A stretch of 13,536 bases of DNA from a virus (Duplodnaviria > Heunggongvirae > Uroviricota > Caudoviricetes): positions 1-13,536 of IMG/VR virus record IMGVR_UViG_2671180571_000005; one strand, written 5' to 3'. The notes below the pieces were generated by a model. That model did not search any database, was not told the origin of the DNA, and saw only the letters and a list, made by a program, of their open reading frames with translations. Each line of letters starts with the position of its first letter. Position 1 is the stretch's first letter. The position numbers were made by a program, and so were the translations under genes. Positions 1 through 4,540 of this stretch are shown piece after piece.

Positions 1-127
1 GATATTGTGTTTTTGTTTATTATCCGTCATTATGTTCTGTTAGTTTGTGACTAAGTTAACGCGTTATTAGTTATCTTATTCTCAAATTGTGTTACGATAA
101 TCCGAGCGGACAATCAGGAGAGGAAAG

Positions 128-2011
128 ATGAGCAAAGTAAAAATCGGTGAATTAATAAACTCACTTGTTAGCGATGTTGAGTCAATAGATAACTCTGACC
201 GTCCTCAAGGGGAAAAAACAAAAAAAATAAAAGCTGTTGCATTAAAATTTAAAAATGCATTATTTAATGACAAGCGAAAGTTTAGGGGGAAAGGATTAGA
301 AAAAAGAATTACAGCCAACACATTCAATGCCTATATGAGCAGGGCCAGAAAACGGTTTGATGATAAACTTCATCATAGCTTTGAAAAAAATATACATCGC
401 CTATCTGAAAAGTATCCTTTATATAATGAGGAGCTATTATCATGGCTTTCTCTACCTGCTGCCGATATTCGCCAGAGAATGTCAGCTTTACAGGCAAAAT
501 TAAAATTAATTCTCCCTTTATCAGAAGATTTATCTAATATCAGAATTGGTGATAACAAAAGTCATAATAAGTTATTAAAATTATCAAATAAATATAAAGA
601 GTGGCAATTCGCCATTTCTGATTTAACTAGCGATAACTGGAAAGATAAGCGCGATTATTTATATAAATTACTACAGCAAGGATCTGCCTTACTTGAGGAG
701 TTGAATCAGCTAAAAGTTAACCATGAGATTCTCTATCATCTTCAACTAAGCCCTGCCGAACGCGCATCTATCCAGCAACGATGGGCAGACGTTCTGCACA
801 ATAAGAAACGTAACGTGGTGGTCATTGATTACCCTAAATATATGCAAGCTATTTACGATATTATAAATAGCCCTGCTACATTAAATAATCTAAACACTCG
901 TTCAGGTATGGCTCCTTTGGCATTTGCACTTGCTGCATTGTCAGGAAGACGAATGATTGAGATTATGTATCAAGGTACATTTACTGTTTCTGGTAAGTAT
1001 ACCGTTGATTTTTTAGGCCAAGCAAAAAAAAGAACTTCTGATGATATAACCAGAAAAATATATACATTATGCGAAGCAAAAACATTTGTTTATTTAATAA
1101 ATGTACTTCGCTCATGCCCAGCAGCATCTGATTTTGATGATGTTGTTAAAGGTTATGGAGATAACGACACACGCTCTGAAAACGGACGGATTAATGCCAT
1201 ATTAGCAAAGGCTTTTAACCCGTGGGTTAAATCATTTTTCAAAGATGACCGCCGTGTTTATAAAGATAGTCGTGCTATTTATGCCCGTATTGCGTATGAA
1301 ATGTTTTTCCGCGTAGATCCTCGTTGGAAAAACGTAGATGAGGATGTTTTCTTTATGGAAATTTTAGGCCATGACGATGAAAACACTCAATTACACTATA
1401 AGCAATTCAAGCTGGCCAACTTCTCAAAGACATGGAGGCCAAATACTGGAAACGAAAATACCAGGCTGGAAGCATTGCAGCAGCTTGATGACGAAATGCC
1501 AGGATTCGCCAGAGGAGATGCCGGAGTTCGTCTGCATAACACAGTTAAGCAGCTGGTAGAGCAGGACCCCTCTATAAAAATCACGAACAGCACTCTAAGA
1601 GCATTCAAATTTAGCCCTACAATGATTAGTCGATACCTGGAATTTGCTGCTGATGCTCTGGGGCAATTTGTTGGCGAAAATGGACAATGGCAGCTGAAAA
1701 TAGATTCTCCAGAAATCGTTATGCCTGACGAAGAAGAGCTGGAAGCAATACCTGAACAGGCGGATGAATTATCAGAGGATGACGATCTGGATGACGACGA
1801 AATTGAGATAGAGGAAGAGAGCATAGAAGAACAGCAACCACCCGCGCCTTCTTCACCTGTATCTAAGCCGGTATTTAAGCCTGTGAGAAATATTGGTGAT
1901 GGCTCATACGTTGTTGAGTTTCATTATAATGGCCAGAATTATGCTTGGTCCGGCAGTGCAAACAGCCCTATGTCAGCAATGCAGTTAGCATGGCTGACAT
2001 ATTTCGGATAA
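128..2011 (+). CDS. telN: Protelomerase (telomere resolvase), TelN/TelK family
   Basis: 627-aa ORF with SD AGGAG (116-120) 7 nt upstream of the ATG. The translation (MSKVKIGELIN..., ...RAIYARIAYEMFF..., acidic C-terminal tail) is recognisably very similar to coliphage N15 TelN as I remember it. Recognised from memory, not searched. Confidence 0.85.
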   Translation: MSKVKIGELINSLVSDVESIDNSDRPQGEKTKKIKAVALKFKNALFNDKRKFRGKGLEKRITANTFNAYMSRARKRFDDKLHHSFEKNIHRLSEKYPLYNEELLSWLSLPAADIRQRMSALQAKLKLILPLSEDLSNIRIGDNKSHNKLLKLSNKYKEWQFAISDLTSDNWKDKRDYLYKLLQQGSALLEELNQLKVNHEILYHLQLSPAERASIQQRWADVLHNKKRNVVVIDYPKYMQAIYDIINSPATLNNLNTRSGMAPLAFALAALSGRRMIEIMYQGTFTVSGKYTVDFLGQAKKRTSDDITRKIYTLCEAKTFVYLINVLRSCPAASDFDDVVKGYGDNDTRSENGRINAILAKAFNPWVKSFFKDDRRVYKDSRAIYARIAYEMFFRVDPRWKNVDEDVFFMEILGHDDENTQLHYKQFKLANFSKTWRPNTGNENTRLEALQQLDDEMPGFARGDAGVRLHNTVKQLVEQDPSIKITNSTLRAFKFSPTMISRYLEFAADALGQFVGENGQWQLKIDSPEIVMPDEEELEAIPEQADELSEDDDLDDDEIEIEEESIEEQQPPAPSSPVSKPVFKPVRNIGDGSYVVEFHYNGQNYAWSGSANSPMSAMQLAWLTYFG

Positions 2012-2022
2012 ATCATACGGTA

Positions 2023-2055
2023 AAGGCACCGAATTATCGGTGCCTTGTTGTGTGG
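2023..2055. terminator. Stem-loop between convergent telN and Bro-N operon; possible bidirectional terminator
   Basis: Perfect 9-bp inverted repeat aaggcaccg (2023-2031) / cggtgcctt (2038-2046) with a 6-nt loop, 12 bp after the telN stop, followed on + by GTTGTGTGG. The U-tract is poor in both directions, so strength is uncertain. Confidence 0.45.
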
Positions 2056-2182
2056 CCTACCTCGCCTGCCCCCTGCAAAGGGTAGAAGTAACGGAGGAAA
2101 CGCGGCTGCAACCACAGACATCACCGCCCCGACTGCGAGGCTTCCCCTCACTAAGAAGGGCATAAATTCGGGCTGGCCAACC

Positions 2183-2956
2183 CTATTTATTAGTGATTTC
2201 TGCTGGCTTTAACTGCGCGGATAACTGCTCAAGTTTTTGAACTGCCAGTTCAAAATGCGCGGGTAACGCCTTTTCCAGATCAGAGTTAATATCGGTGATG
2301 GGCAAATCACCACACGACATACTCCGCCTACCCCCACGAACAACATCACGCAACAACTCTCGTTCATACGTGCGCATGTTCCCCAATGCCGACTCAGCAG
2401 CCGTCAAAATCCGGCGCAGTTCTGCCGTAATTGCTGGCAAATCATCAACAGTTATGGGGTTCGGGGATGGATTACGACACGCCCGACGCAAAGCTAACCA
2501 TACACCGCTAATCCAGGCATTTCGGTACTGAAAACTTTGTGCTATATCGTTAATCAGCCCTCGCAGATACTCTTTCTGCCTCCAGTTCAACGGCTCTGCT
2601 GCTCGCATTGGCTCAGGCTCGATGTAAACGTACTCTCCATTTTTGCGAATAGAGGGCAAGACTTCGTTCGTTACCCATTTGCGAAACCGCCAAGCTGTTG
2701 TGCCTTGCTTCACCGCGTCACGGCAGCGGAGAATGAGGGTGTAAAGACCTGATTCGCTGATGATATTGGCTTGACCTTGACGGCCTATGTTAAACATAGA
2801 TCGCTCATCTTCATCTAATCTAGCGATAGCTTGTGTGACATTCTGGATGCTTAAAGCATTGCAAATATCATTCGCCACAAACCACGGATCGCCGTTAATC
2901 ATCACTACACGTACCTGATGCTCTTCCTGAAAGGAAAAGACTGCTAACGCGCTCAT
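2183..2956 (-). CDS. Bro-N domain protein, putative antirepressor
   Basis: 257-aa ORF with strong SD AGGAGG 4-5 nt upstream. N-terminus FSFQEEHQVRVVMINGDPWFVANDICNALSI matches the Bro-N / phage antirepressor N-terminal signature (F.F....IRV....G.PWF.A.D....L). Start overlaps the stop of the upstream gene as ATGA. Last gene of an icd-like operon, the position occupied by ant in P1. Confidence 0.7.
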   Translation of the reverse strand: MSALAVFSFQEEHQVRVVMINGDPWFVANDICNALSIQNVTQAIARLDEDERSMFNIGRQGQANIISESGLYTLILRCRDAVKQGTTAWRFRKWVTNEVLPSIRKNGEYVYIEPEPMRAAEPLNWRQKEYLRGLINDIAQSFQYRNAWISGVWLALRRACRNPSPNPITVDDLPAITAELRRILTAAESALGNMRTYERELLRDVVRGGRRSMSCGDLPITDINSDLEKALPAHFELAVQKLEQLSAQLKPAEITNK

Positions 2957-3186
2957 TCAGCCTCCTTATCGCGCAGCAAGTGCGACGAGAGAGACGCAGA
3001 ATATCCCTGTGCTTCATGCGTTAACTCACACGCAATCTGCAGAAGTTTTCCAGCCTCTGAGAGGTAAATCGACGCCTCACAACTGGAGACTGTCCGATGG
3101 GCTGATGATACGAGCGCATAGACCTGAGCCAGACGTTCATCCAACGATTCCAGCAGGCCAACAGTGTTCATTTTTACCTGATTCAT
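2953..3186 (-). CDS. Hypothetical protein (77 aa), middle gene of the icd-like/antirepressor operon
   Basis: ORF with SD GAGGTG 5 nt upstream. ATGA overlap with the icd-like ORF upstream and with the Bro-N gene downstream (translational coupling on both sides). No recognisable motif. Confidence 0.55.
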   Translation of the reverse strand: MNQVKMNTVGLLESLDERLAQVYALVSSAHRTVSSCEASIYLSEAGKLLQIACELTHEAQGYSASLSSHLLRDKEAE

Positions 3187-3536: not shown

Positions 3537-3727
3537 GTGCGCTTCGTTTTGCCAGGATTGCGAAGTCCCGACTGCGGGATTTACCGCAGCGAGGTGACTT
3601 TACCTCCAAAACGACGCACACGTCAATAATTTGCAAAGACATTTTACCCCGTGACCAGTCACGGGGACAGGTGTTTTTATAGTTTGCTTGAACAAACGAT
3701 CAGAACATGAACAATGTTATTGTTCCG

Positions 3728-4540
3728 TTATAAGAAAGCCTCACGCGAACGGAACACCCACTCTAGCTGTACTGGATAAATTTCTCCCGTTTTAATATTT
3801 ATTATGCGCGCGGCTAATAACTCACCCATAAAAACCTGAGTTTTATGGCTCATATCTGACGGGTTAAAAATAGTAGGTGATGTTATATCAATATGATTGC
3901 TGCTTAACCCATTTATCTTTGCTAAATATTCAATTCTAAGGTCTTTTACATTAACATCTTTTGGCATTTGTCCTTTTATATCAATATCTGCCCATATTGT
4001 TTCAGGGTTCCCTTCATTTATTTGTGTACTACCAAAGATAATTTCGGCACCTAAAGTATTTAACACTTCTACATCAGCAGATATTCCAAAAGCATTAGCA
4101 CCAACATAGCTTCCATGCTTTGTTATTTCAGAGGAATCGACATGAAAACCATACCATCCAGACATATCTCGAGATGTTATCACGCTATCACTACCGCTAT
4201 TCTCAGCAAAATCACGGTTAAGATATGTTCCTGAGTATGTGATACTTCTAGGGATAGACAAACCTTGAGATGTTAAAACGTTGTTGTATGGCGCGTATGT
4301 TAATGAGTGAACGACATATCCACGCCATGAACCATCATCTATCTTTGATGCAATAATTCTATTAAATTCCTTACCTGTGAGTATTTTGCTGCTAAAATCA
4401 CCAACAGAGTTGATAGGTACTCTTTTTTCTTTTTCGAATTTATACTCAACGTCCGTTGATGCCTTATTATCATATTGATAAGTGCATCCAGATAATAACA
4501 AGATAGAGAGTAATAAAGCTGTTGTTTTTTTGTTACGCAT
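3728..4540 (-). CDS. Lipoprotein of unknown function (AT-rich moron)
   Basis: 270-aa ORF. N-terminus MRNKKTTALLLSILLLSGC has a basic n-region, hydrophobic core and lipobox L-S-G-C (signal peptidase II type). Local GC about 32-35 percent against about 48-50 percent in repA (hand count of 60-bp samples). AT-rich upstream region 4541-4629. Confidence 0.7.
   Translation of the reverse strand: MRNKKTTALLLSILLLSGCTYQYDNKASTDVEYKFEKEKRVPINSVGDFSSKILTGKEFNRIIASKIDDGSWRGYVVHSLTYAPYNNVLTSQGLSIPRSITYSGTYLNRDFAENSGSDSVITSRDMSGWYGFHVDSSEITKHGSYVGANAFGISADVEVLNTLGAEIIFGSTQINEGNPETIWADIDIKGQMPKDVNVKDLRIEYLAKINGLSSNHIDITSPTIFNPSDMSHKTQVFMGELLAARIINIKTGEIYPVQLEWVFRSREAFL

Follow-up and report, generated by a model that had tools for sequence, protein, structure and literature searches.

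The DNA analyzed here, 13,536 nucleotides of a virus record (IMG/VR IMGVR_UViG_2671180571_000005; Caudoviricetes), is referred to in its full length as the window. Its first 127 bases precede telN, an ORF of 627 amino acids in which four Pfam protelomerase domains were recognized with E values from 1e-50 to 4e-25 and whose product is 77% identical to the TelN protein of N15 (L022). The domain content indicates that a protelomerase of the TelN/TelK type is encoded next to the region. The features of these 127 bases and of the gene that follows are listed below, with the dyad being the center of the tel site upstream of the window and A1 an alignment of bases 1-127.

1-4, + strand: GATA, the last 4 nucleotides of a partial motif copy, GTTCCGATA, that straddles the 5' end of the window (weak feature)
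4-17, + strand: site A, ATTGTGTTTTTGTT, with its core ATTGTGTT at 4-11; outward-facing, degenerate copy of the tel arm, 68 nucleotides from the dyad
29-42, + strand: site B, ATTATGTTCTGTTA, with its core at 29-36; degenerate copy of the tel arm, 93 nucleotides from the dyad
46-49, + strand: TGTG, candidate weak fourth copy (42-55, 9/14 by our own count); invariant in A1, marginal
57-66, no strand: perfect 10-bp palindrome TAACGCGTTA, which contains an MluI site (ACGCGT); clade specific
79-82, + strand: TTCT, shortly before site C; shared by the three clades compared and invariant in A1
86-99, + strand: site C, ATTGTGTTACGATA; the family motif is present in full, 150 nucleotides from the dyad and 42 nucleotides before the ATG
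90-98, + strand: TGtTACGAT, extended -10-like element inside site C; candidate core promoter of telN from a weight-matrix scan
116-120, + strand: Shine-Dalgarno sequence AGGAG, 7 nucleotides before the telN ATG; GGAG is conserved in three clades
128-2011, + strand: telN, protelomerase, 627 amino acids (Pfam TelK_N, TelK_muzzle, ResT-TelK_cat, and TelK_stirrup)

No small ORFs were found in bases 1-127, and a search of bases 1-400 with Rfam covariance models at an E value of up to 1 gave no relevant match. In most relatives, GATAATC occurs twice, 13 nucleotides apart (GATAATCCGAGCGGATAATC; window positions 96-101 and 109-114), between site C and the Shine-Dalgarno sequence; in the window, the second of these is GACAATC instead. 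Over telN and its upstream region, the window shares 95 to 99% nucleotide identity with YDC107_1 (CP025712, Ravinvirus), PhiR46_1 (PV340565), and about 30 linear plasmid records from E. coli, Shigella, E. albertii, and E. fergusonii. The tel site, the repeats, and the palindrome are common to these members of the window's clade, whereas the telN-repA interval holds variable accessory genes that differ among them. None of the records of these relatives carries an annotation under the segment that corresponds to bases 1-127.

Position of the window relative to the telomere

The preliminary description had reported that a telO-like palindrome is missing from the window, had taken the resolution site to lie probably just beyond the 5' end, and had proposed to inspect the upstream sequence for a palindrome of roughly 56 bp. 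These points agree with our data. A search with the telO-like sequence CATTATACGCGCGTATAATG returned no match with up to 3 mismatches anywhere in the 13.5-kb window. The upstream sequence is available in a related record, L068 (MCJM01000013), which encodes exactly the TelN of the window and is identical to bases 1-127 at all 127 positions; there, ATCAGCACATAATTTCCCATTATACGC/GCGTATAATGGGGAATTATGTGCTGAT lies upstream, with sopA and sopB farther out. The telRL palindrome of L068 comprises 54 bp with a CGCGCG center, and its dyad lies 191 nucleotides before the telN ATG, that is, 64 nucleotides before the position of window base 1. Judging from this identity, telRL would lie 64 nucleotides before base 1 in the window's own source molecule as well, and the sequence expected 5' of base 1 is CTTTAGAACAAAGTCAAGGAACAAATTTTAACGTTCC, preceded by the tel arm and then by either sop-side sequence or a snap-back.

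The further suggestion that, if the element is a linear prophage, the window may start close to its hairpin end was borne out by several observations. (i) In L069 (PQAX01000034), which has the same TelN as the window, the contig end is a 63-nucleotide perfect snap-back around that dyad, which is the assembler output expected at a covalently closed hairpin. (ii) A CGCGCG-centered telRL palindrome is found upstream of telN in L068, L069, and every relative with enough upstream sequence, and its dyad-to-ATG distance is 189 to 192 nucleotides across the window's clade (W), the N15 clade, and the phiKO2-like clade. (iii) In PhiR46_1, a telL site is annotated at the first bases. (iv) Several records and many IMG/VR contigs end 13 to 245 nucleotides before telN, some records start 13 to 76 nucleotides before the position of window base 1, and several assemblies are inverted duplications around the dyad. 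(v) Among 5426 complete E. coli genomes, the region is located on a plasmid in all 17 genomes that hold it and on the chromosome in none. (vi) The complete relative pEC12401-3 (45 kb) has the N15 gene order, with lambda-like virion genes, sopAB, telN, the Bro-N operon, repA, cB, cro, and Q; an integrase, named in the preliminary description as a sign against a linear prophage, is not annotated in it. Taken together, these data argue, if indirectly, for a replicon that is a linear, hairpin-ended extrachromosomal prophage without an integrase or att sites. By comparison with these sequences, bases 1-127 are assigned to the telL arm of an N15-type linear phage-plasmid of E. coli, of which they make up the two-thirds nearest to telN. 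The window would thus begin 64 nucleotides inside the left telomere, which accounts for the absence of telO and for the many assemblies that break or fold back at this place.

Perfect inverted duplications of at least 190 nucleotides, centered on the tel dyad, are present in several deposited "complete" records and in IMG/VR contigs. They were noted in L001 (YDC107_1, CP025712), where the duplication spans 846-3127, and in L011/L067, L026/L027, L045/L065, L062, and L019/L020. In YDC107_1, the duplication gives rise to a second, fragmented "protelomerase" annotated as three coding sequences. None of these is a real gene duplication; they look like snap-back (hairpin read-through) assembly artifacts or, possibly, head-to-head replication intermediates.

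The arm motif copies and their spacing from the dyad

Two copies of ATTGTGTT (4-11 and 86-93) and the palindrome TAACGCGTTA (57-66) are present exactly as the preliminary description had stated, where both had been read as signs of a telomere-resolution or regulatory region. Bases 1-127 were shuffled 5000 times with dinucleotide composition preserved; a direct repeat of at least 8 nucleotides turned up in 15% and a palindrome of at least 10 bp in 13% of the shuffled sequences, and the two occurred together in 2.3%. Each feature is thus nonsignificant when taken alone, and since both are near chance level, the case has to be made by comparison with other sequences. Under this comparison, the two features fared differently. 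The repeats are retained as evidence, not as two 8-mers but as members of a set of three conserved, oriented copies spaced from the dyad, whereas the palindrome, clade specific and broken in the E. fergusonii relative L072, does not count as evidence for a telomere or regulatory region.

The third copy of the repeat is located at 29-36; it reads ATTATGTT in the window and ATTGTGTT in most close relatives. The degenerate motif ATTRTGTK has 5 matches on both strands of the whole 13.5-kb window; 3 of them are located between positions 4 and 93, each on the + strand. Bases 86-93 form the 5' half of a longer unit of 14 nucleotides, ATTGTGTTACGATA (86-99). The outer arm of the tel site consists of the same motif as the sites, namely, ATTGTGTGCTGATA in N15 and ATTATGTGCTGAT in the window's clade. 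Site B scores 10/14 against the consensus and 11/13 against the tel arm of its own lineage, ATTATGTGCTGAT. Sites A and B of the window retain only the 5' half of the motif, with site A below the threshold of 10/14 and site B exactly at it. A weaker partial copy straddles the window start: in L068, L069, and L005, the bases that precede the initial GATA read aacGTTCC, and the resulting GTTCCGATA, at -132 from the ATG in the window's clade, is one mismatch away from GTTACGATA. By their sequence and orientation, A, B, and C are degenerate outward-facing copies of the tel outer-arm (L3/R3-type) motif.

Conservation was assessed in an alignment of the dyad-to-ATG interval that covered 24 distinct sequences of the window's, N15, and phiKO2-like clades. 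Leaving aside the tel half-site and the Shine-Dalgarno sequence, conservation forms islands at window positions 7-11, 29-36, 79-82, and 87-98, and the spacers have diverged; the islands of three-clade conservation fall on sites A, B, and C. At site A, bases 5-11 are invariant in A1, and 7-11 (GTGTT) are conserved across all three clades; at site B, bases 29-31 and 33-38 are invariant in A1; and at site C, all 14 columns are. About 13% of the 127 positions (our own count from A1) differ between the window and the E. fergusonii sequence L072, which nevertheless keeps ATTGTGTT at all three cores and the 14-mer ATTGTGTTACGATA (86-99) unchanged.

The motif copies are concentrated and oriented around the dyad. 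With up to 1 mismatch, ATTGTGTTC has 12 matches in the 45 kb of pEC12401-3, 7 of which lie within 165 nucleotides of the dyad, and 18 matches in N15, 8 of which lie within that distance; all 15 dyad-proximal matches of these two replicons face away from the dyad, and the centers on the telN side are at +72, +96, and +154 in both. Over 44 distinct loci, GTTACGATA with up to 1 mismatch occurs at 8.7 per kb in the 195 nucleotides upstream of telN and at 0.19 per kb in telN and downstream of it, a 46-fold enrichment. Outward-facing copies are found on both arms, against a background of 0.46 per kb.

We then compared 17 lineages with 50 to 100% TelN identity, derived from 63 IMG/VR loci, by recording copies of the 14-mer that scored at least 10/14. 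These copies lie mostly at offsets of 14-15, 67-71, 91-94, and 147-150 nucleotides from the dyad. The position of site A is occupied by such a copy at offset 64-71 in 12 of the 17 lineages, the window's own copy being below the threshold; the position of site B is occupied at offset 91-94 in most lineages scanned, and that of site C at offset 147-150 in 14 of 17. At the candidate fourth copy, members of the N15 clade score 10-11/14 at offset 106. None of the 17 lineages has copies of at least 10/14 at all four offsets, and D2, D4, D6, and D8 have fewer or shifted copies. In L040, the ATG is 14 nucleotides closer to the dyad and the distal copy is still at offset 150, which argues that the array is anchored to the telomere and not to the gene. 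The tel arm and its flanking copies also covary: GGTGACGATAA is accompanied by GGTTACGATAA in L040, and TTGTGACGATAA by GGTGACGATAT in L052. The recurrence of this dyad-anchored spacing across most of the telomere-phage lineages sampled, down to 50% TelN identity, appears to be a new, if modest, point. An extended similarity of bases 18-39 to the whole tel half-site (22 nucleotides, 73%) was also considered; it was rejected as marginal beyond the arm motif and is weaker in N15.

The same architecture has been described for N15, whose natural TelN target of approximately 310 bp comprises the 56-bp telRL (telO plus L3/R3) and the degenerate copies L1, L2, R1, and R2, with at least two degenerate L3/R3 copies on each side of telRL (PMC12624138). 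The right-hand primer used in PCR of the N15 tos covers the homologue of site C and ends on GTGTTACGATATCCAGAGAC (PMC2847241). When aligned, the columns of sites A, B, and C coincide with those of GTTGTGTT, ATTATGTT, and ATTGTGTTACGATA of N15, and it is by this alignment, rather than by published coordinates, that they were matched to the published R1 and R2. On this basis, bases 1-127 appear to correspond to the right-hand flank of the extended TelN target of N15, tos. In both systems, the order is sopBA, telRL, and telN, with telRL immediately upstream of telN (gene 29 in N15); the dyad lies 191-192 nucleotides before the ATG; the telO core CCATTATACGCGCGTATAATGG is shared; the telN-side repeat centers are those given above; and the 14-mer ATTGTGTTACGATA at site C is identical. 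In contrast, the outer arm of the tel site is ATTATGTGCTGAT in the window's clade and ATTGTGTGCTGAT in N15; the spacer between B and C is unrelated, with TAACGCGTTA here and GTGACGA-N15-TCGTCAC in N15; the sop-side copies are at other offsets; and the TelN proteins differ to the extent stated above.

The phiKO2 (TelK), phiKO2-like, and PY54-like sequences also have a CGCGCG-centered palindromic tel site about 190 nucleotides before the protelomerase gene, as well as outward-facing ATTGTGTTAYGATA copies at offsets 69, 93, and 150. The phiKO2-like arms differ in that they carry better-preserved full copies and an extra copy at offset 131, and in that an inverted TATCGTAACACAG abuts the tel arm at offset 28, a position that is degenerate in the window's clade. 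In PY54 and P840, the flanking element is an inverted repeat of 10 to 15 bp, which is dispensable in P840 (PMC10612081). No useful description of flanking repeats was found in a Sci Adv 2025 paper (PMC12042878) or in the TAPE and yeast-telomere papers.

Proposed role of the repeats and alternative readings

TelN occupancy of flanking repeats is known only for N15 (summarized in PMC12624138), in which multisite TelN binding and looping have been proposed, but not proven, as a telomere-capping architecture (PMC12624138). Considering the similarity of the motif copies to the tel arm, we propose that sites A, B, and C are probably secondary TelN binding sites of a telomere complex. TelN, which reads the same motif within the tel site, would also occupy A, B, and C; together with TelN on the copies of the other arm, an extended telomere nucleoprotein complex would form, which may assist resolution, cap the hairpin against SbcCD, or both. 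That the sites keep a fixed distance to the hairpin tip, and not to the gene, suggests a role in telomere architecture. An observation on N15 speaks against TelN sites: the domain proposed to bind the repeats was reported to be nonessential for end protection (PMC12624138).

If the repeats were bound not by TelN but by a nucleoid protein of the host or a further phage-encoded protein that organizes the telomere-proximal DNA, this dispensability would be accommodated. The region is AT rich, as sites of nucleoid proteins often are. Still, we regard such a protein as improbable, since the motif is the same as the outer arm inside the 56-bp telRL, motif and tel arm change in step across lineages, and the copies are mirrored in orientation about the dyad, which suits a protein recognizing the tel half-site; by eye, the sites also bear a poor resemblance to the IHF or DnaA-box consensus.

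A different question is whether the repeats are primarily promoter or operator elements of telN, conserved for RNA polymerase or a transcription factor rather than as sites of a telomere complex. This explanation, which is compatible with TelN binding and not exclusive of it, takes two forms: either the TGtTACGAT of site C is an extended -10 element, or A (TTGTGT) and B (CATTAT or TATTAT) supply the -35 and -10 elements, respectively. A simple sigma-70 weight-matrix scan covered 9 representatives of the W, N, and K clades; in 8 of these, TGtTACGAT (TGtTAYGAT over the alignment) ranked first or close to first, at one and the same alignment column, and the A-B pair scored 6.6 to 6.8 in members of the N15 clade. 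In addition, because only the hairpin lies upstream of telN in a linear prophage, the promoter would be confined to these 191 nucleotides, among the sites, and site C is mostly 41 to 43 nucleotides from the ATG. The geometry of these candidate promoters is inconsistent across lineages. Site C stays 150 nucleotides from the dyad while the ATG moves, to 28 nucleotides away in L040 and about 16 nucleotides away in L051/L053 (our own reading), where it is too close to the ATG to provide both a -10 element and a Shine-Dalgarno sequence. A consensus promoter scan of 1-400 yielded no + strand promoter. Furthermore, the motif also faces outward on the other arm, where there is no telN, and it is itself the tel outer arm. 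We therefore consider a primary promoter or operator function possible but rather unlikely.

The palindrome TAACGCGTTA might act as a dyad operator for a clade-specific regulator of telN or as a hairpin-forming element, which we judge highly improbable. It is perfect, occupies a place between sites B and C that would suit a promoter-proximal operator, and is invariant in 10 distinct close relatives; as these are 95 to 99% identical, however, invariance within the clade is uninformative. N15 has a different inverted repeat, GTGACGA-N15-TCGTCAC, centered at the same dyad offset, +125, but this repeat is broken in other N15-clade members. Against an operator stand the frequency of such palindromes among shuffles given above and the lack of a second copy: no good match to TTAACGCGTTAT with up to 3 mismatches was found in the 13.5-kb window, the immunity region included. 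The symmetry does not continue in register beyond the 10 bp, as T56 faces T67. Moreover, TAACGCGTTA lies in the least conserved part of the three-clade alignment, lacks conservation in the clades of N15 and phiKO2, and reads TAACTCGTTA in L072, the nearest outgroup, in which a central G-to-T change breaks it while the flanking motif copies are retained. A hairpin is disfavored by RNA fold z-scores of -1.5 here and of -1.8 to +1.1 in six lineages, relative to shuffles. Most likely, this 10-bp palindrome is specific to the clade and due to chance, and a function for it is unsupported. Three related candidates were rejected, namely, a palindromic repressor operator (found once in the window, without conservation beyond the clade, and asymmetric in L072), a structured RNA element (no relevant Rfam match in 1-400 and the fold z-scores given above), and a conserved hairpin at +125 (the N15 inverted repeat is absent from other members of the N15 clade and from the phiKO2 clade, and the folds are no better than those of shuffles).

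Under the preferred reading, in which TelN occupies A, B, and C, the confinement of the promoter to the interval that holds the sites leads to the weaker expectation that TelN occupancy would damp telN transcription and so limit its own synthesis. Autoregulation of telN by TelN is plausible but unproven; since no convincing sigma-70 promoter was located, it is the geometry of the region that argues for it. A more speculative extension, which we put forward tentatively and as somewhat doubtful, is that the array at about 15, 69, 93, and 150 nucleotides from the tip is a combined telomere cap and sensor. TelN would polymerize or loop along the arm, hide the hairpin, and cover its own promoter, and telN transcription would go up only once TelN is titrated away by unoccupied telomere junctions that have just been replicated. 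In practical terms, the comparison provides an annotation rule for the family (a protelomerase gene, a dyad about 190 nucleotides upstream, and motif copies at about +15, +69, +93, and +150) and pinpoints which bases to mutate in tests of flanking-repeat function. The current picture of protelomerase systems is unchanged.

Further observations on the arms and the window

The sop-side arm, outside the window (L003, 2752-2905; L068, 2630-2790), contains five or six copies of GAACACAA(T), the reverse complement of ATTGTGTTC, and every one of them faces away from the dyad. This arm includes a 50-nucleotide tandem duplication with 70% identity, and its copies vary more in offset from clade to clade than the telN-side copies do. 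Also outside the window, an inward-facing TATCGTAACACAG is found at offset 27-29 in L029, L030, L033, L038, L051, and L061, which belong to the phiKO2-like and more distant clades; the window's clade and N15 have two GAACA(A/T)A copies there. At the position of window bases 52-78, one close relative, the IMG/VR contig L013 (2648501186_000001), carries a single T-to-A change, from AGTTATCTT to AGTTAACTT. The change creates an inverted repeat with 9-nucleotide arms, TAAGTTAAC and GTTAACTTA, centered 3.5 nucleotides to the right of the window's palindrome, and this one-base variant illustrates that palindromes arise easily in the AT-rich spacer.

Farther into the window, an ORF of 270 amino acids (3728-4540, - strand) occupies a variable slot that is flanked by the Bro-N operon on one side and by repA on the other. 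The ORF had no Pfam or PADLOC match and one weak PHROG match of unknown function. The PhiR46_1 gene at this place bears the annotation Spackle exclusion protein, and the slot is filled by different genes in other relatives; it is probably a hot spot of accessory or exclusion genes. Between two - strand ORFs, at 3635-3678, an imperfect 21-nucleotide inverted repeat (AAAGACATTTTACCCCGTGAC and GTCACGGGGACAGGTGTTTTT) is flanked by A/T runs and looks like a bidirectional intrinsic terminator.
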